DNA of 64,000 nucleotides from Mobula hypostoma (lineage: Eukaryota). Position 1 is the first letter of the stretch; each line of letters begins with the position of its first letter. The position numbers and the translations under genes are program-made. This document shows positions 9,163-63,120 of this stretch, piece after piece. The notes beneath the pieces were generated by a model, which did no database searches, had not been told where the DNA came from, and saw nothing but the letters and a program-made list of their open reading frames with translations. Location: positions 165,294,001 to 165,358,000 of the forward strand of contig NC_086097.1 of NCBI RefSeq assembly GCF_963921235.1, written 5' to 3'.

Positions 9163-9360
<198 letters not shown>

Positions 9361-12441: not shown

Positions 12442-14043
12442 CAGGTTTCCCCCCGCCATCCGAAGGTAGAGTGTTGGTATGAAACGGTTCGTAAGCGGAA
12501 ATGTCGTAAAGCGAAGAAGCAATTACCATTTATTTATATGGGAAAATTTTGTGAGCGTTCACAGACCCAAAAATAACCTACCAAATCATGCCAAATAACA
12601 CATAAAACCTAAAATAACAGTAACATATAGTAAAAGCAGGAATGATATGATAAATACACAGTCTATATAAAGTAGAAATACTTTTCCACAGTCAGTACTG
12701 AACTGTTCTCTGTAGCGAAAATCTCATGAAAGCGCCATCGGCAGAAAATCTCACGCAAGCGCTGTTGGCAAAAACACGCCGCAAGCGCTCTCCAGTAACC
12801 TTTAAGCTATGAAGCTGCCAAATCATACCAAATAACACGTAAAAATACACAGCCTATATAAAGTAGAAATAATGTATGTACAGTGTAGTATCACTTACCG
12901 GAATTGGGAAGACAGCGCCGAGCACACTGATGATGGTGTGTTAGACTGAGTCGGAGTTTGGGTGGTGCAGTGGCCCCCACCCTCCAGGCTGCCGACTGAT
13001 ACATTGCCGTGAAGCATGCAGGGGTACAGCGGTAGCCGGGAGGTACACGGCACATCTTTAAGAAAAAAGCCAAAACAAACATGGTAATTAATTAGGTGCC
13101 GCTGGGCACATAATTGTCGGCCCAGATCAGTGCCGATTTCCGATTGCGTCGTCTCTGATCTGGGCCGACAATTATGTGTCGGCGGCACCTAATTAATTAG
13201 CATGTTTATTTCGGCTTTTTTCTTAAAGATGTGCTGTGTGCCTCCCGGCTACTGCTGTATTCTCCGTGAATCAGTATCTGTCCGTGGCCTGGGGGTTGGG
13301 GTGGTGGGGCACTGGGGTGTTATCTCGTCGCCTGTTTCCATCAGAGCAGGCAGCTCATCTTCTCCTATGACTGCCCGCCTCAGATGTCAAAGGTCGAGGT
13401 TCGTCGTCTGCTGTGGCTGATGTGGAAGGCTTGCTTGACTGCTGAGCCTCGCGCATTTTTCTATCACACAGTTCTTTGTAAGGACTCAGACCATCCTGCA
13501 AATATCCCCTAAACCGACGTACCCTTTCAAAATTAAAGTCGTACTTTATCAATACTCATTCAGTTTCGATTGTTATCCTTTTTTCTTCCAATTGCATCAG
13601 CTCTATATCTGTCAGTTCTTGGTCATGAGATGCCAAAACCTCTTCAACATCATCTTCGTCAGCTTCCACAAACCAAACTCACTTTGTCCTTACTTCGTTC
13701 ACCATGATCGAAACACTTAATTATGTCTAGTTTTACGCTAAGTGTAACACCCTTACGACCTCTTGCTTTTCCGATACCATAGAACTCATCTTGCAAACGG
13801 CTGCTCACAGGCATGTGTTAAAGCAATGCCGGCAACAATGCAGTTCCGAATCCAGGGGAGAGCGGCTGCTCGGGGCGCGAGCTGCCTTTTATTGTGCGCT
13901 GATTTTTTATTGTGTGCTGCTTTTTTTTTGTAACAGTGAAAACACCTTCTGAAAGCGAAAACAGGGTACTAACAGGGTACTACAGGGTCTTTCGTAACAG
14001 TGAGGTTTCATAAAGCGAACGTTCGAAAAGCGGGGGACGCCTA
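12442..14043 (-). mobile_element. Tigger/pogo non-autonomous element, copy 2 (both ends)
   Basis: TA TSDs; ends CAGGTTTCCCCCGCCATCCGAA and TTCGAAAAGCGGGGGACGCCT; internal palindrome at about 13025-13255. Confidence 0.92.
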
Positions 14044-14497
14044 TATACTAGATTGGAAGAAATGCAAGTGAATCACTGTTGGGACTGTTTGGGTCCATAG
14101 ATGGTGGAAAAGGAAGAAGCGAAGGGACAGGTATTGCTTCTATTGTTTTTGCATGGGAAAATGTGATTAGGTGGAGAGCAGTTGTTGGGATCAAAAGAGT
14201 CAACCAGGTTGTCATAAAGGAAATGTTTGAAATGCTGAATTCTTGCTGGAATTGGTGGAAATTGCAAAGGATCATCAATTGGATATGAAGGCTGGTGGGA
14301 TGCAAGGTGAGGAATAAGAAGAGCAGTGAGAATGAAAGTGTAGGAAATAGATGAGATACAGTCAAGGGATCTGGCCACTATGGTTGAAGGAAAGCCATGG
14401 TTCAGCCAGAAAGACTGGCATAGCTTCAGCCCACAAGGGTTTCCATAGCGACACTTTTGATCTGGAAAATGAGAATGGAGTTGAAATTATTCAACTT

Positions 14498-17060: not shown

Positions 17061-18508
17061 CACTACACTACCACACTAGACGTGTCACAACAACCAATTT
17101 GATATCAGAAATGCAGTGGATATAAATGGGAAAGAGCTGAGGTCAGGTCAGAAGGCATAATTTTAATGGGCAAGAGCAGGCCAAAACAATGGGGCTGCCA
17201 GAACGGAGTCGTCTTTAGGATCTTGGGCAGACATTAGAAGTGGACTGTGCAGTGGTGGACCACAATTTATCTTGTTGTTCTCAGATTGTCTTCTAGCAAC
17301 AGAAAAACTGATTGCGTGGCAATGTGTCTGTCAACCAGTAAGCAAAGGAGACTCATTTAATACCATACGCATAGTTAAAGAAGGGAATCAACCCATGCTG
17401 CTTTCAAAATATGTAGTAACTTTCACTTTAAAATGATATGGTATTGTTTGATTATTTGTTTTGGCATCATCTGGAAGTGTAGAAACCTTTTAAGTATGAA
17501 AGTACTGGAGTTGTAAAGAACTTGCTGTTCTACTTTTGTTTTCAGACAGTTCCCATCAAAACGAAGTCTATCTCTATTCACTAGGTCACTAACTGTAATT
17601 AAATGTCATTTTCTGGAATGCAAAATAACAAGCCCTGAGAAGGGTGTGACTGCGCAGGTTATAAACATTTTCTTTCAGGCAAAACAATTGCTAATTAATT
17701 GTAAGTGTATCTTTATATTACATTGATACAAAATTCATACAGATATTTTTAAAAATCTGAATGTAATAGTTGACGGGGGGAGAGAGTGTGACTGAAAGCA
17801 AAATGTTAACATTTTTACTAACCATTCATTTTAAGCATGTACTACCACCCTATAAACTTACAATTATAGTGTGGGGTAATGTAGTTGGATAGATGACACA
17901 TATCGTTCATAATAGAAAATGTTCTATGTAATTCACAAACAGCAGCATTGAGTGCTTGTGTTCACTTTAAGACACAGTGTCTAACATAATGATGACTGCA
18001 TAAGGCAATTGCTTTGGTTTTGTTTGTACTGGAAGTAAAAGGCTGAGGCTTTTGTTAAGTATATAGAGTGACTCCTAAATGTCTTATTCACAAAATCCTA
18101 CATTGGTGACCTTGACACTGTCAGACAACTCCAGACTTGCTCAGCAACATGTCAACCAATGGAGTCACTTTGAAGCTGCCAGAGTTTTGGGAGCAGCACA
18201 CTGCTTCATGGTTTGCACAGCCAAACGCCAGTTCACACTGCAAGAAATTGCCACGGATAATATTAAATTTTGCTATGTAGTAGCATTGCTTAGAAGTTCC
18301 ATTGCAGCCAGAGTGATGAGTCTACTAGAAGATCCACCTGATTGTGATAAATATGTCACTCTGAAAACTGATCTATTACAGACTTTTGAGTCTTAGCGCG
18401 CCAGACGGTTGCTCTCCTTGCCCTGCCTGGGTGACACAAGGCCTTCAGAACTAATGGACCATATGCTATCTCCTGGGTAATCACCGTCCTCATTTACCTT
18501 AGTTACCA

Positions 18509-19500
18509 ACATAACTTCCACCACCACCAAGCACATCTTTTCCTCTCTCCCCACCCCCCCCTGCTTTCCGCAGGGATCGCTCTCTACGCGACTCCCTTGT
18601 CCATTCGTTCCCCCCTCAATCCCTTCCCACCGATCTCCCTCCTGGCACTTATCCTTGTAAGCGGAACAAGTGCTACACCTGCCCTTACATTTCCTCCCTC
18701 ACCACCATACAGGGCCCCAGACAGTCCTTCCAGGTAAGGCGACACTTCACCTGTGAGTCGGCTGGGATGATGCACTGTGTCCGGTGCTCCCGGTGTGGCC
18801 TTCTATATCTTGGTGAGACTCAATGCAGATTGGGAGACCGCTTCACTGAACACCTACGCTCTGTCCGCCAGAGGAAGCAGGATCTCTCAGTGGCCACACA
18901 TTTTAATTCCACGTCCCATTCCCATTCCGATATGTCATTCCATGGCCTGCTCTACTGTCGAGATGAAGCCACACTCAGGTTGGAGGAACAACACATTATA
19001 TTCTGTCTGGGTAGCCTCCAACCTGTTGGCATGAAGATTGATTGCTCTAACTTCCGTTAATGCCCCTCCTCCCCTTCTTACCCCATCCCCATTTCTAATT
19101 TATTATTTATTTATTTTAAAAATTTTCTCCTCTTTTCCTCTCACAATAACTCCTTGCCTGTTCTCCATCTTCTTCTGGTACTCCCCTCCCCCCTTTCTTT
19201 CTTCCAAGGCCTTCTGTCCTATGATACTCCCCCTTCCCCAGCCTTGTATCCCTTTTGCCAGTCAACTTCCCACCTCTTGGCTTCATCCCTCCCCCTCCTG
19301 TCTTCTCCTATTGTTTCGAGTCTCCCCTCCCCCTCCCACTTTCAAATCTCATACTATCACTTTTTTCTGTTAGTCCTGACAAAGGGTCTCGACCCGAAAC
19401 GTCGACTGTACTTCTTCCTATAGATGCTGCCTGGTCTGCTGCGTTCCACCAGCATTTTGTGTGTGTTGCTTGAATTTCCAGCATCTGCAGATTTTCTCAT
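18509..19500 (+). mobile_element. Penelope-like element 3' part: GIY-YIG endonuclease plus pseudo-LTR
   Basis: ORF 18767-19060 HCVRCSRCGLLYLGETQCRLGDRFTEH...VATHFN...RLEEQHIIFCLGSLQP.G; 7-bp TSD GTTACCA (18502-08, 19501-07). Confidence 0.9.
19372..19407 (+). ncRNA. Minimal type-I hammerhead ribozyme motif (one core substitution)
   Basis: AGTC-CTGACaA-A-GGGT(CTCG)ACCC-GAAAC-GTC-GACT: helix I AGTC/GACT, helix II GGGT/ACCC, palindromic helix III ACGT, GUC cleavage triplet; G8>A at a CpG. Confidence 0.7.
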
Positions 19501-21898
19501 GTTACCATCTTTATTTTATCTTTAAAGTACTCTTTATTGCAACAAATGCCTAATCAAGTTCACACAGCCATTGCTAATACACCAGTGATGGACAATAGTG
19601 AGCTTGCTAAAATGGCCAGTAGTCTACACTCAGCCAAGCAGAAGTGCATCATTTCTCCTCCTCTCTTTCTATCAGAAACCCCTATCAGCAGAGCCTCCAG
19701 CAGACTCATGCCGGTGGCTCCACACAAGATGTTTTTACCATGCACGCTTCAGCATGAACACCATGAAGTGCTGACTGCCATGCAGCTTTGACAGTGTCAG
19801 GACATCAGAGGTCTGTGAACACCATGGGTTCAGCTGCCAGAGTCATCTGTTGTTCATTTCAATCACCCTTTTAAAACGTTGCTTCCTCTGTGACATGGGC
19901 ACTCATGGGTGTGCTGCCATCATCGCCCATTGATATAAGGGAGAGAACAACAGCCCCTCAATGGAGGCTGCCACTGGCAACGGGATCTGGACTTACAGGT
20001 CATGATGGTCTACCACAGTGGAACAGCTTGGGTACAGCTGAGAGTCTGCCTCTGTCATTGGATACCCTCTGGTGAATTTATGACTTGTAATTTAAGAAAA
20101 CAATCTTCTGAGTTTAAAACTTAGCCTGACTTTTCCAAACCACCAGAAGTAACCTGCTGTAACTTGTCTTGCTTAAAATAAAATTAGATTTTTCAAGAAA
20201 CCTGCTTTAATGTGTGCAAACAATCCTGATTTATGAACTATGCAATACATTTTAAAAGGGCGTGGGAATAAAGGATTTGTTTTTATAATCTGAAAGCCTC
20301 ACTGATTTAGAATGTACCACAAATTCCTAATTGTCTGCACTAATCTCAGGTGACATTCCTGTGACTTGGGTGTGACCATTGAACAGAGAATAAAGCAGAT
20401 GTACATCAGAAAAAAAGGTTTCCACAGCATTATTTATTAGTGGCTGAGATAACACAGTATTCTGAACAAGGTGATTCTTTGCATTTGGTTAAAGTCAGTG
20501 ATTCACATACTGATAATAAAAATGCAAAAACAATAGGTGAGCTGCTGGAGGAACCCAGTGGCTCAGGAACTATCTGTGGAGGGAAACAGACAGTGTTTTG
20601 GGTCATCTGGACTGAAAGAGCAGAGAGAACATAGAAGTAAGGTAGAGGTTTGGGGCAGAGCTTGCAAGCAATCTTCCAATGTCTACAGTTTCTCTTGTCT
20701 CTATCAAAGCACAAAATGACTACATGAAGTAAGTTAAAATAACTATATGAAGGAACCTATAGAAGCAAGCCCTTCAGCCCATCTTGCCCATGCTGAACTA
20801 TTAATCTGCGTAGTCCCATCAACTGTACTTTCCATAGTTTTCTACTTCACCCTGTGATGTTCTGGTTTTGTTCTTTTTCTTAGAAATGTTTTTCTTTTAA
20901 TATTTTTATTGTTTTTTTAAATAAAGAGAGCATAGTATAAAGGAGGTTTTTGCAGTTCATAACAAATGTATCACATGTACAATTCACATTTATGAAAGAG
21001 ATGCACCCATAGTACAATCATGCTTTGGTTGCCTCCCTGCCCCTGACCCACCCCTCCTAATCCCCATCTTCAAGCTATCATTACATTAGCAAAAAGGGTT
21101 AGACAGAACCTTTGTCCCCACAGAGCTGCATTGGTATAGAGAGGGTGTATTTTCCTAATACATAGACTGTTGTATGTTTACAAGTCTGAGTCCGTAGAAT
21201 TTTACTGGGAAATGCTGGAGGTCAGGGATTTATGTGCAGAGGAAAGGAAGAAAGGATGAACCTTTAGTATGGCTGGGAATCCTGGAAATATTCAGGAAAG
21301 GGTCCCCACACCTTTTGGAACTTTATGTCCGGGTTGAGAATTGAATAATGGATGTTCTCAATGTAGACTGGACATGATGTCCCTGAGCCACTGAGCGTTG
21401 GTGGGCGGGGCAGCATCCCTCCACCTGAGCAAGACTGCACGCCTGGCCAACAGAGAGGCAAAAGACAGTGAGCGATATTTGGTCGGACTTAAGTGCGTGT
21501 CCCCCTCTCCTGAGATGCCGAAAAGAGCACTCAAAGGGTTAGGTTCCAAATTATAATTAAGTATTTGCGATAGAATTTGGAAAACACCTTTCCAGTATTT
21601 TTCCAAGCTAGGGCATGTCCAGTACATGTGAATAAGGGAAGCCTTGCCCCTTTTGCTTTTGTCGCAACAGGGATTAACATCTGGGTAAATGTGAGATAAT
21701 TTAGTTTTAGGCATATGGGCCCTGTGTACAACCTTGAACTGTAACAAGCAGTGGCGGGCACATAAAGAGGTTGAGTTAACTAACTTAAGAACTGAATCCC
21801 ATACATCGTCTGACAGTGAGATATTTAAATCTTGCTCCCAGGCAGTTTTAATTTTGTCTAGGGGGGCTCGCCTCAGGACCACTAGCTTGCCGCAAATA

Positions 21899-28770: not shown

Positions 28771-29116
28771 AATGTACATGCTAACCTTTAGAAATTTCAC
28801 CTCAAAATGCAAATGTTTCTACATGTATTTTAATGACATCCAGCTCTTGTGTGACTATTGTTGGCACTTCAGTACAATGTTAAAAGAGAGAATAAAAGTA
28901 TGTGTAAGATTTTCTATATAGCAAAGTAATTCTAGCTTAAAATGCCAGCAAATCTTTGCAGTCAAGCTAGCATATAGGAAAGAAACAGTAATGCTTCAGG
29001 TCTAGCCCTTCATGGAATCTTTTAGATGTGGAGCCTATAAAAGTAATTGTTTCACTTTTCTCCAGATGCTACCTGACCTGCTGAGTTTATTCAGCATTTA
29101 GTGTTTTTATTTAAAA

Positions 29117-31027: not shown

Positions 31028-31198
<171 letters not shown>

Positions 31199-40674: not shown

Positions 40675-40923
40675 TATATGTATATCTAAGGGACTGAATT
40701 GAGATGTTCAGCATGGCTTTGTGCGTGATAGGTCATGTCTAACTACTCTTAGTGAGTTTAAAGCAGTGGGTGTTGTCTACATGGATTTTATCAAGGCCTT
40801 TGACAAAGTCCTGCATGGGAGGTTGGTCAAAAAGGTTCAGTCACTTAGCATTCAAGATGAGGTAGTAAATTGGATTATACATTGGCTTTGCGGGAGAAGC
40901 AGGAGAGTGATAATAGATGCTTG

Positions 40924-41284
40924 GCAGCAGTTACAGTTGACGTTTTGAGCCGAGACCCTTCGTCAGGACTAACTGAAAGAAGAGATAGTAAGAAATTTGA
41001 AAGGGGGAGGGGGAGATCCGAAATGATAGGAGAAGACAGGAGGGGGAGGGAGGGAGCTAAGAGCTGGAAAGTTGATTGGCAAAAGGGATACGAGGCTGGA
41101 GAAGGGAGAGGATCATGGGATGGGAAGCCTAGGGAGAAAGAAAGGGGGCGGGGAGCCCAGAGGATGGAGAGCAGGCAAGGAGTTATAGTGAGAGGGACAG
41201 AGGGAGAAAAAAGAGAGAGGGAAAAGGGGGGGGGGGTAAATAAATAAGTAAGGTGCAGCATATGAAGATTTCCTCGTGTTTGCG
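40924..41284 (-). mobile_element. Penelope pseudo-LTR insertion with hammerhead motif and inverted tail
   Basis: Minus AGTC-CTGACGA-AGGGTCTCGGCTC-aAAACGTC at 40970-40939; + strand tail gcagcat.tg.agatttcctcgtgtttgc; flanking repeat TAGATGCTTG. Confidence 0.8.
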
Positions 41285-42950: not shown

Positions 42951-43109
42951 CACAAATGAGAAAATCTACAGATGCCGGAAGTCCAAGCAACACACACAAA
43001 ATGCTGGAGGAACTCAACAGGCCAGGCAGCATCTATGAAAAAGAGTACAGTTGATCTTTTTGGCCGGAACTACCCAGCCTGCTGAGTTTCTCCAACATTT
43101 TGTGTGTGA
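42951..43109. mobile_element. 159-bp fold-back Penelope pseudo-LTR mini-insertion
   Basis: 13-bp TSD GATGCTGTCTTTC (42938-50, 43110-22); cacacacaaaatgctggaggaactcaacaggc is inverted against gcctgctgagtttctccaacattttgtgtgtg. Confidence 0.8.
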
Positions 43110-43259
43110 GATGCTGTCTTTCAATTATTTCAGAGATTCTAGTCTTTCATTAGCATTAAACATTTGAATGAGGGATTACAGTAACAGTAAAGAGCAAAAT
43201 TTAAAAAGACATTAACTAGGCTGCGAAGTGCAGGCTACCCAATATTAAAGTAGACTCCT

Positions 43260-46640: not shown

Positions 46641-49164
46641 CGATTCTATAATGATAAATAGCTCAAGAATTCCATGGCAAGTGTGTGTGATTAGTCCTTT
46701 TGAACATTGTTCTATTTACATGAATCTATAAAAGTCATTAATTTAATGAGGTGTAGGGAAGTGAGGAAGGGACAAATGATGCGCCTAGTAACATGGGCCT
46801 AAGTTGTCCTAGTTTCTATTAGGAAGATTCACCAATCCGGTGAAATTATGACAGTCTTTCTATCTGCTGTAATATGTAAAAGATGATCTTAGAATGAATG
46901 AGAATTATTCTAAAAATAAAACGTTTGCAAATATTTTGCTGAAACAGCATAATAGAAAGACATTAAGATGTTAACCCAGATATTGCTGGCCTGGGAAATG
47001 TATATGAAACTTGTATTGTGCAGTGAGCCAATGAACTCTTCATTCTGAGGGCACACTGCCACAAAATTCTTTCATGCACGAGACCTGTGGAGAAAATGGT
47101 GAAACGCAATTAAATGATAGTGTGGGAAGGGAACTGAAACTCTTGGTTAAATTATTAGTCAGTAGTGAAGCATTGGAGCTTCAAAGATTATCAAGAACGT
47201 TTAGGATTGGGGAGAAAGGGCAGGGGAGAAATGTGGTGCTGCCATATAGGTGATCAAGTGCACAATTGACTGCTGGATGTAATGTATAGACAAGTTCAAT
47301 ATTGAGATCTGTGAACATTGGGATTATGATTAGCTGCTTGTAGAACTGGTATCAAGACAGGTTGAGTGAGTTGGGGGATTTTGGGGGAGGACCATTATCA
47401 GAGTTTTTAACTGTAAAATTTCTTTGGAAGCTGAAATTAACTTTTTTATTGTCACATGTACTGAGATATGGTGAAAAGCTTATCTTGCATGCTGTTCATA
47501 CAGATTAATTCATTACACAGTGCATTGAGTACAAGGTAGAACAACCAGAATGCATAATAAAGTGTTACAGCTGCAGAGACAGTACAGTCGGGTGACCAAT
47601 AAAGGTGCAAGATTATAACAAGGTAGATTTTGAGGTCGAGTCCATCTTAGTATACTACAGAACCGTTTAATAGTCTTACAACAGTAGGGTCAAACTGTTC
47701 TTGGACCTAGTGGTATGTGCTTTCAGGTTTTTTGTATCTTATACCTGTTGGAAGAGGGGAGAAAAGAGTATTTGGGGTGGGTGGGCAGTTTATGCTGAGT
47801 GCTTTACTGGGACAGTGAGAAGTATAGACAATGCATGAAGGGAAGGCTGGCCTCTGTGATTTACTGACACTTAATCCAGCACATAATTCTCCATAACTTC
47901 CGCCATCTCCAATGGGATCCCACCACCAAGCACATCTTTCCCTCCCCCAGTTTCTGCTTTTCGCAGGAATCGCTCCCTACGTGACTCCCTTGTCCATTCA
48001 TCTCTCTCCATTGATTTCCCTCCTGGTACTTATCCTTGCTAACAAAGCAAGTGCTACATGTGCCTCTATAGCTCCTCCCTCACTGCCATTCAAGTCCCAC
48101 AACAGTCCTTCCAGATGAGGCGACACTTTACCTGTGAGCCTGTTGGGGTCATCTATTGTATCTGGTGCTCCCAATGTGGTCTTTTGGTATATTGGTGAGA
48201 CCTGACGTAGATTGGGAGACTGCTTCGCCAAACATGTAAAAGCAGAATCTCCCAGTGACCACCCATATTAATTCCACTTTCCGTTCCCATTCCGACATGT
48301 CCATCCATTGCCTCCTCTACTGTCACAATGAGGCCACACTCAGGTTGGAGGAGCAACACCCTGTATTTCTCCAACCTGATGACATGAACATGGATTTATT
48401 GAATTTCCAGTAATCTCCCCCCGCCCCCACCTTCTCTATTCTCCATCCCCTTTCCCTCTCTCAGCTTATCTCCTGCCTGCCTATCGCATCCCTCAGGTGC
48501 TCCTCCCCCTTTTTTCTTTCCTCTGTGACCTTCTGTCCTCTCCTATTAGATTCCCCCTTCACCAGCCCTATATAGTGGCAAGCAAAAGTTTGGGCACCCC
48601 GGTCAAAATTTCTGTTACTGTGAATAGCTAAGCGAGTAAAAGATGACCTGATTTCCAAAAGACATAAAGTTAAAGATGACACATTTCTTTAATGTTTTAA
48701 GCAAGATTGCTTTTTTTATTTGCATCTTTTACAGTTTCAAAATAACAAAAAAGGAAAAGGTCCCAAAGCAAAAGTTTGGGCGCCCTGCATCGTCAGTACT
48801 TAGTAACACCCCCTTTGGCAAGTATCACAGCTTGTAAACACTTTTTGTAGCCAGCTAAGAGTCTTTCAACTCTTGTTTGGGGGACTTTCACCCATTCTTC
48901 CTTGCAAAAGGCTTCTAGTGCTGTGAGATTCTTGGGCCATCTTGCATACACTGCTTTTTTGAGGTCAATCCACAGATTCTCGATGATGTTTAGGTCAGGG
49001 CACTGTGAGGGCCATGGCAAAACCTTCAGCTTGCGCCTCTTGAGGTACTCCATTGTGGATTTTGAGGTGTATTTAGGATCATTATCCTGTTGTAGAAGCA
49101 ATCCTCTCTTCATCGTCAGCTTTTTAACAGATGGTGTGATGTTTGCTTCCAGAATTTGCTGGTA

Positions 49165-50757
49165 CAGGTGTCCCCTGCTTTTCGAACGTTCGCTTTACGA
49201 AACCTCACTGTTCCGAAAGATCTACATTAGTTACCTGTTTTCGCTAACAGAAGGTGTTTTCAGTGTTACGAAAAAAGGCAGCGCGCGCCCCGAGCAGCCA
49301 AGCTCCTCCCCCGGAACTGCATTCTAACCAGCATTGCTTAAACACGTGCCTGTGAGCAGCCGTTAGCAAGAGGAGTTCTAAGGTATCGGAAAAGCCTAAA
49401 AGAGCTCGTAAGGGTGTTACACTTAGCGTAAGACTAGACATAATTAAGTGTTCATGGTGAACGAAGTAAGGACAAAGTGAGTTTGGCTTGTGGAAGTTGA
49501 CAAAGATGATGTTGAAGAGGTTTTGGCATCCCATGACCAAGAACTGATAGATGAAGAGCTGATGCAATTGGAAGAGGAAAGGATAACAATGGAAACTGAA
49601 TGCAATAGCGAATGGACCGAAAGTGAAATCGTCCAGGAACTGAATGTGAAGCAACTGCGTGAGATTTTCGCTGCAATGATTGCAGAAAAGTATGACTTTA
49701 ATTTTGAAAGGGTACGTAGGTTTAGAGCATATTTGCAAGATGGTTTGAGTGCTTACAAAGAACTGTATGATAGAAAAATGCACAAGGCTAAGCAGTCAAG
49801 CAAGCCTTCCACATCAGCCACAGCAGACGACGAACCTCGACCTTCGACATCGAGGCAGGCAGACATAGAAGAAGATGACCTGCCTGCCCTGATGGAAACA
49901 GACGACAATGAGATGACACCCCACTGTCCCACCACCCCAAACCCCAGGCCGCGGACCAATACATTGCTGCAGAGAATGTAGCGGTAGCCGGGATGCACCC
50001 AGCACATCTTTAAGAAAAAAGCCGAAATAAACAAGCTAATTAATTAGGTGCCGTCCGGCACGTAAATGTCGGCCCAGATCAGAGGCGATTGCCGATTGCG
50101 TTGCCTCTGATCTGGGCCGATATTTACGTGCCAGGTGGCACCTAATTAATTAGCTTGTTTATTTCGGCTTTTTTCTTAAAGATGTGCTGGGTGCGTCCCA
50201 GCTACCACTGCACCACTGCATGCTGCGCAGATCGGTATCAGTCGGCGGCCTGGAGGTTGGGGACCACTGCACCACCCCAACCTCCAACGACTCAGCCTAA
50301 CACACCGTCATCAATGTGCTCGGTGCTGTCTTCCCGATTCCAGTAAGTGATACTACACTGTACATACATTATTTCTACTTTATATAGGCTGTATATTTTT
50401 ATGTATTATTTGGTATGATTTGGCAGCTTCATAGCTTAAAGGTTACTGGAGTGAGTGTTTCTGCCGAGAGCGCTTGCCTGAGATTTTGCATGAAAACAGT
50501 GCGGCAATGATTGTAGAGAAGTATTTCTACTTTATATAGGCTGTGTATTTATCATATCATTCCTGCTTTTACTATATGTTACTGTTATTTTAGGTTTTAT
50601 GTGTTATTTGACATGATTTTGTAGGTTATTTTTTGGGTCTGCGAACACTCACAAATTTTTCCCATATAAATGGTAATTGCTTCTTCACTTTATGACTTTC
50701 TGGCTTACAAACCATTTCATAGGAACGCTCTACCTTCGGATGGCAGGGGGAAACCTG
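49165..50757 (+). mobile_element. Tigger/pogo non-autonomous element, copy 4 (both ends)
   Basis: TA|CAGGTGTCCCCTGC ... GGGGGAAACCTG|TA; ORF 49490-49981 transposase C-terminal remnant; internal palindrome 49981-50209. Confidence 0.93.
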
Positions 50758-51507: not shown

Positions 51508-52354
51508 AGGATAACTTGTACAACAGGACAGTGATCCAAAACACACCTCAAAATCCACAATGGACTACCTCAAGAGGTGCAAGCTGAAGGTTTTGCCAAG
51601 GCCCTCACAGTCCTCCGACCTAAATCTCGAGAATCTGTGGATAGAGCTTTATAGAGCATTGCATGCAAGACGGCCCAAGAATCTCACAGAACTAGAAACC
51701 TTTTGCAAGGAAAAATGGACAAAAATCCCCTAAACAAGAATTGAAAGACTCATAGCTGGCTACAGAAAGCGTTTACAAGCTGTGATACTTGCCAAAAGGG
51801 GTGTTACTAAGTACTGACCATGCAGGGTGCCCAAACTTTTGCCTTGGGCCCTTTTCCTTTTTTGTTATTTTGAAACTGTAAAAGATGGAAATAAAAAAAA
51901 GTGATCTTGCTTAAATCATTAAAGAAATGTGTCCTCTTTAACTTTATGCCTTTTGGAAATCAGTTCATCTTTTACTCGCTTAGATATTCACAGTAACAGA
52001 AATTTTGACTAGGGGTGCCCAGACTTTTACATGCCACTGTATCTCTTTCACCAATGAACTTCGCAACTCTTTACTTGACCCTTTCATCCCACCGCCACCG
52101 TTTCACCTGTCACCTTGAGTTTCTCCCTCCACTCCCCCACCCTCTAACTCTGACTCCTCATTTTTTTCTCTCCACTCCTGCTGAAGGATGTCAGCCCAAA
52201 ATGTTGACTGTACTCTTTTCCATAGATGCTGCCTGGCCTGCTGAGTGCCTCCAGCATTATGTGTGTGTTACTTGGATTTCCAGCAACTGCAGATTTTCTC
52301 TTTCGTTTGTGATATACTGAGCTGTGTCCACAACTCTTTCTGATCTCTTGTGGT

Positions 52355-57460: not shown

Positions 57461-58909
57461 CATCCTTAAATAGGTGTATTGAATGGCACTAATGCAACTC
57501 CAGAAATGAATCTTAAAGAAATGCAGCAGAAGTCCACCAGCCCACCATGCCTGCATTAGTTTGTTGAAAGAATTGAAAATCAAAAGAAGAATTGCAAGTG
57601 TTGGAAACATGAAATAAAATAAAATGCTGGAGGTTCTCAAAATCAGGACGCATTAATGGGAAGAGAAACTGAGCTGATGCTGCAGATTGAAGACCCTTGT
57701 CAGGATTGGAAAGGAGACAAGGCAAATTTAAAGGTATAGGGAGGAATTTGTTTTTTTTAAATTTTTAGGGATGCAGCACAGAGTAGGTCCTTCTGCCCCT
57801 TCCAGCAATCCCACAACCCTGATCAACACTAACATAATCATGGGACAATCTACAATGACCAATTAACCTACCCAGTACAATCTTGGACTTTGGGAGGAAA
57901 CCAAAGCATTCCACAGGAAAGACATATAAACATTCCTTACAGTGATAGCAAGGCTATTGGAAAGGATTCTTAGCTGTAGGATTTGCTCACATTTAAGAAG
58001 AATATGAAATAATTAGAGATAATCAATATGGCTTTGTGTGGAGCATGTCATGCCTTACAAAGTAAAGGAAGTGATTAAAATCATTGATGGGAGATCAGTA
58101 GATTTTGTCCACATAATATTTTACAGAGCCCCTCAGGGTAAACTAATCCAGAAGATTAAGATACGTAGACCCTGGAGAAGCATCTCGTCCCAAAACATTG
58201 ACTGTTTATTCATTTCCATTGATGCTGCCTGACCTGCTTTTTCTGTGTGTTGCTGTGGATTTCCAGCATCTGCAGACTTTCTTGTGTTTATGATTTGCTG
58301 CTCCATGATCAATTGTTAGTTTGGATTGAAGACTAGTTTGTTCATAAGACAGAGGATAATGCTGTTGAGCTGTTATACTGACTGAGGTCTGTGACCAGTG
58401 TGTTCTACAAGGATCAATGCTGAGGCCTTAGTTGTTTGTGATGGACATACATGATGTGGACGAAAATGTAAAGGGGCTGATTAGTAAGTTTGCTGATTGT
58501 GCAAACCTTGGTAAAGAAATTTGTCAAAGGATACAGCTGGATTTTGATACTCTGCAGGTATGGTAGAGAAATAGCAGATGGAGTTTAGTCTCTGCAAGTT
58601 TGAGATATTACACTTTAGAAGGTCAAATGTAAGGAGAAAGTATAGAGTTAATGGCGGGACCCTTAACACCAGGGGTCCCCAACCTTTTTTGCACCGCGGA
58701 CCGGTTTAATATTGACAATATTCTTGCGGACCGTCCAACCGGTGGACGTGTTAATCACGACCGGAATATAGGTGATAAGTCAACTATAAGTCACTTATAA
58801 GTGGCTAATACACTCAATTTGGTTTCTAAAGGGGTTTATCTAACAAATTTAATATTAAACACACAGCGCATATTTTCCTCGCATGAATATAGTGATAAGT
58901 CAATTATAA

Positions 58910-61471: not shown

Positions 61472-62360
61472 GCTTTTGTGCCTTTTAACTTGGCTTTGGT
61501 TGGATAGTATTTTATCGTTATTTACCTGCCTTAAATTTTATTCATTATCTAAGAACCTTTATTTAAGTTGTGTGAGAATCTTCAGCCTTTCTCAGGACCA
61601 AAAGAAAAATCCACATTTCCACAACCCATTGGGAAACAGTATTAGCTATAATGAGAGGTTGAAAAAATGGATTGTTTTCTCTGGAGCATCAGAGATTAAA
61701 GCTTATAGAGATAAAACAATGAGAGCTATAGCTAGATTAGCCAGTCTTTTTCTCAAGGTAGAAATGTTAGAAACTAGAGGACATAGGTTTAAGGCGGCTG
61801 GGAAAATGTTTAAAAGAGATGTGCAGGACAGGCAACACACATAAAAGTTGCTGGTGGACGCAGCAGCGTTCCCCAGCAACTTCTTTTCCTCGTGTGAGCA
61901 GGGCAGGTTTTGTTTTAGACAGTAGTAACTGCCTGCAACATGCTGTTGGGATGTTGACAGAATTGGATATGATAGTGATGTTTAAACAAGTGAATGAGCA
62001 TATTGGAATAGAGGGATATAGATCATGTGCAAGAAATAAGTTTAATTTAACAGGTGGATGTAGAAAGAGTATTTACACTTGTTGAAAATTTAGAATTTGG
62101 AACTGACTTCCCTGTATAAACCCACGTCATCTCATTAAATTACTGCAAGAAGTTGCTAAGACAGGGACACAAAAGTGGACCACATTGTATTAAAAGCTTT
62201 TGTGCCATTTAACTTGGCTTTGGTTGGATAGTATTTTATCGTTATTTACCTGCCTTAAATTTTATTCATTATCTAAGAACCTTTATTTAAGTTGTATGAG
62301 AATCTTCAGCCTTTCTCAGGACCAAAAGAAAAATCCACATTTCCACAACCCATTGGGAAA
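61472..62360 (+). repeat. 165-bp direct repeat (61472-61636 and 62196-62360), 2 mismatches
   Basis: gcttttgtgcc[t/a]tttaacttgg...gttgt[g/a]tgagaatc...cccattgggaaa present twice. Confidence 0.95.

Positions 62361-62907: not shown

Positions 62908-63120
<213 letters not shown>

Follow-up and report, generated by a model that had tools for sequence, protein, structure and literature searches.

The window (the whole stretch of 64 kb that was analysed) carries on its forward strand, at positions 19372 to 19407, a 36-base minimal type I hammerhead of Penelope-like elements (PLEs), the only mismatch of which falls at core position 8. With high confidence, we read this site as a minimal hammerhead in the pseudo-LTR of a truncated PLE, located in an intron of ANKRD12, which is likely unable to cut and likely an inert passenger, since a probable CpG-decay change at position 8 likely blocks cutting.

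The motif and the element that carries it

Helix I (5' arm, 19372 to 19375; 3' arm, 19404 to 19407) comprises 4 bp, with one further U-G pair possible, and closes the motif, as is proper to the type I topology. The 5' box of the core contains C3 (19376), a C in position N7 (19380), an A instead of G in position 8 (19381), and A9 (19382), and is followed by an extra nucleotide (A, 19383). Helix II (19384 to 19387 with 19392 to 19395, 4 bp and a 4-nucleotide loop) includes the G10.1-C11.1 pair, formed by the G at 19384 and the C at 19395. Downstream, G12-A13-A14-A15.1 (19396 to 19399) and C15.2-G16.2-U16.1-C17 (19400 to 19403) provide the GAAA box, the palindromic positions 15.2-16.2, and the UH triplet, helix III being absent, and the predicted cleavage position lies between 19403 and 19404. 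This arrangement corresponds exactly to the base-by-base parse given in an earlier note on this DNA. The A at position 8 leaves a C3-A8 mismatch, that is, neither a C3-G8 nor a U3-A8 pair; lacking C3-G8, the site is filed as a degenerate family copy and not as an intact ribozyme. Replacement of G8 with A likely inactivates the hammerhead core.

A descriptor scan was run on both strands of the window, and the minimal-hammerhead descriptor, which was composed with this site already known, matched 19372 to 19407 as the sole site when either one or two core mismatches were allowed, while none of 40 dinucleotide shuffles matched it at up to one mismatch. With a perfect core, the descriptor found no site in the window, and the intact CUGANGA..GAAACGU pattern was likewise absent from it. 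The covariance-model search fared differently, as none of the 17 Rfam matches obtained in the window at an E value of up to 10 is a hammerhead, although these models may miss motifs devoid of helix III. The folding energy of the motif is ordinary (z of -0.48, with 59 of 200 shuffles folding equally well).

The motif belongs to a Neptune-like insertion of about 1 kb on the forward strand (18509 to 19500), the 5' limit of which is approximate, homology with another copy starting from 18521; at the 3' side, the family depth in the aligned contigs of public runs drops sharply past about 19503. A stop-to-stop frame (18515 to 19060) corresponds to the C terminus of a PLE open reading frame (ORF), with the linker zinc finger CKRNKCYTC and a degenerate GIY-YIG endonuclease with an internal CxxC. 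Its stop codon (19058 to 19060) lies 311 nucleotides upstream of the motif, in agreement with the earlier estimate of about 310. The 3' pseudo-LTR (19061 to 19500) consists of a pyrimidine-rich stretch, the hammerhead, and about 95 nucleotides of conserved sequence. An optional terminal segment (19468 to 19503) separates two classes of family 3' ends, at about 19467 to 19470 and about 19498 to 19503 (some 33 nucleotides apart), and is likely the PLE tail. A candidate 7-bp target-site duplication (18502 to 18508 and 19501 to 19507) flanks the insertion; it is weak, as 238 of 5,000 random window pairs have a 7-mer in common.

As regards the coding remnant, Pfam gave no match on the frame 18515 to 19060, GIY-YIG included, and no reverse transcriptase (RT) domain was found in it; the copy is called 5' truncated on account of the absent RT. 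The frame matched 4,837 representative proteins at an E value of up to 0.001, and it aligned with the C termini of full-length relatives of 816 to 927 amino acids with E values of 1e-26 to 1e-38. Among nine relatives scanned at an E value of up to 0.01, RVT_1 was found in five and GIY-YIG in eight, each falling to two of nine at the Pfam curated cutoffs. The C-terminal GIY-YIG of the window copy is thus recognized through its alignment to relatives that match GIY-YIG. Of 25 matches, the two with a named source came from the stingray Hypanus sabinus (70 to 71% identity, covering one third of the query), and the host is thus likely a cartilaginous fish. The CX2-5CxxC linker upstream of the endonuclease, which is CKRNKCYTC here, is common to Neptune, Nematis, and Naiad and hence not sufficient to assign the element to Neptune. 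Taken together, the endonuclease frame, the RT-bearing relatives, and the linker uphold the Penelope pseudo-LTR setting that had been proposed.

Outside the reference proteins, the endonuclease alignment gave no matches among PDB sequences, none from 73 candidates in viral contigs, and three distant loci from 130 candidate stretches of metagenomes, none of them of this PLE family; the DNA patterns of the family matched neither viral nor metagenome contigs. On one metagenome contig (L002, 1427 to 1466), a distant GIY-YIG element carries a CUGAAGA-C ... GAAA-CG-UU motif about 730 nucleotides past the stop and before another long frame, with a 3-bp helix I and an imperfect helix II; its 8-letter core by itself is at chance level. 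A broken DUF7041 (PF23055) fragment, presumably of a Gypsy-type gag, adjoins the insertion (18079 to 18500 and 19508 to 19790), and the downstream flank may continue it, although a homolog search with that flank found nothing.

The ANKRD12 exons lie on the forward strand on either side of the insertion, and the motif is therefore intronic and in sense orientation, as the earlier note had placed it in the pre-mRNA. Upstream is the coding exon at 9163 to 9309; downstream are an ANKRD12-like exon at about 31118 to 31192 (tblastn limits) and the coding exon at 62917 to 63078, for which all fully named matches are ANKRD12. The intron spans about 21.8 kb; with the middle exon left out, which is the case in the closest transcript-derived protein (P0026), its length is 53.6 kb. 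Since that exon is missing from P0026, as it is from P0036 and P0045, it is likely a conserved alternative exon; it is homologous to a segment found in some amphibian proteins. Just before the last exon, a direct repeat of 165 nucleotides (61472 to 61636 and 62196 to 62360, 99% identical and 724 nucleotides apart) represents either a recent duplication or an assembly artifact.

Family copies and CpG decay

The motif is overlapped by at least 11 family copies in the window, at least 9 of them beyond the two named in the earlier note; all except 19372 to 19407 are decayed. A second pseudo-LTR copy lies on the reverse strand (40923 to 41210), is 82% identical, and is antisense to ANKRD12; in its hammerhead (about 40935, or 40939, to 40970), G8 is retained, and both G12 and G1.1 are gone. 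The earlier note had combined this copy with that at 19372 to 19407 to restore an intact core; the copy indeed exists and supplies G8, but, being antisense, it cannot form a dimer with the other copy within the ANKRD12 transcript, and it is without G12 and G1.1. Two further sense copies are the pseudo-LTR at 52038 to 52302, with A6 and G12 lost and helix II damaged, and the copy at 58171 to 58288, with A6, G12, and the palindrome lost; position 12 is an A in both. No cis dimer partner was therefore found in the window, given the antisense orientation of one copy and the missing G12 of the other two. Sense copies amount to 3 of 11, a strand bias that is not significant (p of 0.23).

Two inverted pairs of pseudo-LTR ends were identified, at 42956 to 43066 (reverse) with 43070 to 43140 (forward) and at 28939 to 29010 (reverse) with 29057 to 29115 (forward). 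The forward members, which lack the motif, begin at points corresponding to 19427 and 19415, respectively, just past the 3' side of the hammerhead; such divergent pairs could form hairpins in the pre-mRNA. Degenerate PLE endonuclease fragments occur at 14043 to 14426 (reverse) and at 47874 to 48573 (forward), the latter replaced near 48597, before its own hammerhead, by another repeat common to 39 to 40 kb and 51 kb, which we take to be Tc1-like. The window also contains long palindromic repeats of a multicopy family (2746 to 2892, 13090 to 13194, and 49977 to 50212), whose subthreshold Rfam microRNA matches probably reflect hairpin shape only.

The family is very abundant: with 19300 to 19600 as reference and 80% likeness, 65,223, 59,649, and 29,109 contigs aligned in DNA-type public runs from three organisms and 5,481 in a fourth public run, where depth is not equal to copy number. 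Many family contig joints change strand. The two end classes, the opposite-strand joints, and the inverted pairs near 43070 and 29030, which are PLE hallmarks, indicate a tail and inverted partners at the level of the family. One contig from a second organism begins at 19476, as does one from the first, and continues into the 3' flank found here, differing at 5 of 125 nucleotides and hinting that the insertion may predate the split of the two organisms; its element side counts about 28 letters, under our 31-letter bar.

The base that is ancestral at position 8 can be approached from both sets of copies. In the window, G8 is present in four of six scorable copies, and the dinucleotide at positions 7 and 8 reads CA, TG, CG, AG, CA, and TG across the six, a pattern of decaying CpG that is in line with the earlier attribution of the change to G8>A at a CpG. 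In the public runs, G is the only alternative listed at 19381, at 32, 33, 58, and 78% of the aligned depth in four runs, values that are biased toward the reference. The minority shares of G8 (32 and 33%) speak against an ancestral G. Compared with 19392, however, only about a third of the depth remains at 19381, and the expected TG form reaches 2 to 10%; on the basis of this shortfall and of the near lack of TG, we put these shares down to clipping against the A-bearing reference. From the sequence comparison, the ancestral base of the family at position 8 was likely G, and the family ancestor with an intact core that had been postulated is likely as well. An A8 subfamily is a conceivable alternative to the loss of G8; it would not be the Schistosoma-type U3-A8 variant, since no change to U is listed at position 3. 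In a run that we guess to be RNA, G8 makes up 78% of the depth, against 32% in the DNA run of the same organism, and at other CpGs the frequency of G-to-A changes is about half that of the DNA run; the copies that are transcribed may be of younger age, or the putative RNA run may be dominated by a few of them. No accumulation of ends was listed for the contigs of this run, which in any case cannot reveal cleavage ends of RNA.

The family motif contains five CpGs, namely, N7-G8, one in loop II, C11.1-G12, C15.2-G16.2, and C17-G1.1. Over 11 copies, these sites read CG in 11 cases, TG, CA, or TA in 32, and otherwise in 6. Changed letters number 43 of 99 at CpGs and 35 of 232 elsewhere in the motif, i.e., change is about three times faster at CpGs (Fisher p of 9e-8, which is optimistic, as the sites were picked on the very copies counted and several subfamilies are mixed). 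The count leaves out the candidates at 7.5, 61.6, 62.3, and 0.2 kb, which align poorly over the motif, and the copy at 36.6 kb was carried into neither this set nor that used for covariation. The window majorities favor A at positions 12 (6:5) and 16.2 (6:4), where the mixture of CA and TG points to an ancestral CG.

Of the five CpGs, four coincide with bases that serve catalysis, dimer pairing, or the cut site, and the roles of G8 and G12 are described in PMC6155905. With needed bases on four CpGs, ordinary methylation-driven decay would disable copies quickly; nothing shows that this placement is an adaptation. The copy at 19372 to 19407 keeps four of the five CpGs, among them all those of the substrate side. 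The literature search, judged from titles or abstract openings, found no work on CpG deamination of Penelope hammerheads.

Alignment of 10 window copies (the copy at 20.6 kb, in which helix II is deleted, was omitted) placed 66% of cells in pairs, versus 22 to 46% in six slid controls. The covariation that the earlier note expected did not emerge, as the signal of helices I and II in these 10 decayed copies was not above that of shuffles (196 to 438 of 500 as high); the test is weak and uninformative here, as the copies have decayed neutrally. The only clear helix change is the one-sided U-A/U-G at 19387/19392. Since 19392 is G at 94 to 98% of the family depth, helix II is topped by a U-G pair in the family, but by a U-A pair in the copy at 19372 to 19407.

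Comparison with known hammerheads and possible mechanism

Minimal hammerheads in the pseudo-LTRs of metazoan PLEs were published in 2014 by Cervera and De la Pena (PMC4209133). The site at 19372 to 19407 shares with them the type I fold, the CUGANGA layout with an extra nucleotide, G10.1-C11.1, GAAA, the two-nucleotide palindrome, and UH, as well as a helix I of 4 to 5 bp and a U-rich upstream flank; in common, too, are the thousands of dispersed single copies and the 5'-truncated copies that carry the 3' motif only. It agrees with the consensus of their Fig. S3 at all positions except 8, so that the descriptor and the published consensus together bear out the minimal type I anatomy first proposed for it. 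The 4-bp helix II is at the short end of their range, and, different from the Schistosoma variant described there, A8 occurs here without a compensating U3. In the same figure, PLEs from many phyla retain the catalytic core, with helices that vary around it. No cartilaginous fish appears in Table S1 or Fig. S3 of that paper, and our search of the literature on Penelope hammerheads of cartilaginous fish did not find this family, a prior listing elsewhere being possible. The motif works like, and descends from, the known minimal PLE hammerhead, the type of which is therefore already known.

Among vertebrates, the Poseidon element PAc of Anolis carolinensis (Frangieh et al. 2024, PMC11167929) is likewise a PLE with a hammerhead in its pseudo-LTR and with two 3' end positions 30 to 40 nucleotides apart, downstream of the hammerhead. 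It differs in belonging to the Penelope/Poseidon clade, whereas the window element has a linker zinc finger of the Neptune/Nematis type, and in having the ORF start inside the motif, no ORF start having been located in the window element; moreover, the cleavage of PAc was assayed, while the window family is known from sequence. With the Neptune clade (Craig et al. 2021, PMC8557442), the element shares the C-terminal GIY-YIG, the internal CxxC and downstream histidines, the CX2-5CxxC linker, the pseudo-LTR, the inverted partners, and the tail. As RT is absent from the window copy, the latter is Neptune-like by its linker and endonuclease features and not by an RT tree. The same work treats the linker CX2-5CxxC as diagnostic and gives it, along with a CxxC within GIY-YIG, for Neptune and Nematis and not for Penelope/Poseidon. 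An optional tail of 30 to 40 bp and inverted partners are described for PLEs in both PMC11167929 and PMC8557442. The non-LTR retrozymes of animals (bioRxiv 10.64898/2026.07.22.740005), reported from one chondrichthyan genome, similarly have type I hammerheads from PLE pseudo-LTRs, but these are tandem noncoding units, whereas the window copy is single, with an endonuclease fragment and no adjacent unit.

Published activity does not support the step from an intact core to an active ribozyme that had been taken for this family, because the minimal hammerheads of PLEs assayed in the literature failed to cleave as monomers, cleaved weakly as dimers, or depended on the PLE protein. In particular, two minimal motifs were proposed to pair via the palindrome and so build helix III, and of the one minimal motif tested, the monomer was inactive and the dimer and trimer were weak (PMC4209133). 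For cleavage, the hammerhead of the anole PLE requires the PLE protein, and in vitro insertion does not need the hammerhead; G8C or C3G abolishes its cleavage, the double change partly rescues it, and no RNA-seq reads were seen to end at the cut site (PMC11167929). The need for C3-G8 thus established in a PLE hammerhead, together with the C3-A8 mismatch, supports the judgment that the copy at 19372 to 19407 is probably dead. Furthermore, one of nine retrozyme dimers tested cleaved (bioRxiv 10.64898/2026.07.22.740005), and Naiads proliferate without canonical hammerheads (PMC8557442).

Secondary-structure prediction, which takes no account of tertiary contacts, places the closed monomer rod of the C7-G8 form 4.0 kcal/mol below the open fold, with G5-A6-C7-G8 paired to C15.2-G16.2-U16.1-C17 and the GUC triplet buried. 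The predicted gap between closed and open folds is 1.3 kcal/mol for the natural copy, 2.2 with U7, and 0 with A7, and the hammerhead dimer is predicted to lie 1 to 9 kcal/mol above two closed monomers. In these models, the closed rod fits the need for a protein helper.

By analogy with the known systems, it is possible to hypothesize that the two motifs of a tandem parent-element transcript would join through their ACGU palindromes, with each core cleaving the opposite strand 3' of GUC, probably at a slow rate and aided by the element protein. Single copies may be kept off by the predicted C7-G8 monomer rod, which would hide the cleavage triplet. Once inserted, a copy would lose G8, G12, the palindrome, and the cut-site pair as its five CpGs became deaminated; that at 19372 to 19407 would have undergone one such change so far.

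Alternative readings and significance

The motif of the family could instead be a structural or protein-binding signal that does not cut, or a mere hitchhiker, so that even intact copies would be uncut in vivo. We take this possibility seriously without favoring it, and it is compatible with the preferred reading of the window copy as a dead hammerhead. The anole system speaks in both directions, since hammerhead mutants leave insertion in vitro unaffected and no RNA-seq reads end at the cut site, and yet the motif cleaves with the protein and responds to the C3/G8 rescue (PMC11167929). The spread of Naiads without canonical hammerheads (PMC8557442) agrees with a noncutting role, as do the predicted energies, by which the G8 form is 4.0 kcal/mol steadier closed and the dimer lies 9 kcal/mol above two closed monomers; on the other hand, the catalytic core is conserved over many phyla despite helix change (PMC4209133, Fig. 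S3), and in the window copies only 9 of 95 non-CpG core letters differ. That the resemblance to a hammerhead is due to chance we regard as the least credible reading of all: the lack of an Rfam match, the ordinary folding energy, and the absence of a covariation signal would suit it, but it is contradicted by the descriptor result, with none of 40 shuffles matching, and by the element context, as well as by an exact fit that extends beyond the catalytic boxes to the extra nucleotide, G10.1-C11.1, and the palindrome, in the expected place of a PLE pseudo-LTR.

Two further readings would give the copy a role in its host gene, and we consider each very improbable. Its core being dead and its substrate half perfect (helix I arms, palindrome, and GUC), intact family RNA might act in trans and, as a heterodimer, cleave the ANKRD12 pre-mRNA. 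Each core of the symmetric dimer fold is predicted to cleave the opposite strand, four of five CpGs are retained with the substrate side complete, and family sequence occurs in the putative RNA run with G8 at 78% of depth; the partners, however, would be held by three 4-bp helices only, with the dimer predicted below closed monomers in stability, published activity is low even in tandem (PMC4209133), the window has no intact sense partner, and the RNA label of the run is a guess. The host might also have co-opted the copy as a regulatory element of ANKRD12, with which its sense orientation, the best preservation of the motif among the window copies, and the second-organism contig running from 19476 into the 3' flank (a hint of a shared insertion, with about 28 element-side letters, under the 31-letter bar) would agree. 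Yet the sole core change strikes an essential base, the preservation fits a younger insertion, with about five majority differences from the family in 19372 to 19503, and this is one among very many copies, the sense orientation being found in only 3 of the 11 window copies (p of 0.23).

For the reading of a dead hammerhead in an inert passenger, the single copy is of little importance. Extended to the family, the very improbable idea of cutting in trans would have core-dead, substrate-intact intronic copies cut by intact family RNA as heterodimers, with the PLE protein, and CpG decay acting as the brake; we give this version just as slight a chance. If it were true, the family would amount to genome-wide latent cut sites in host pre-mRNAs, and trans cutting, once shown, would mean that host genes undergo ribozyme cleavage stemming from a repeat family, of which there is no sign here. 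Being very abundant, present in introns in both orientations, and endowed with essential bases on CpGs, the family is a handy test bed for asking if the minimal hammerheads of PLEs cleave in vivo and, if so, to what end.
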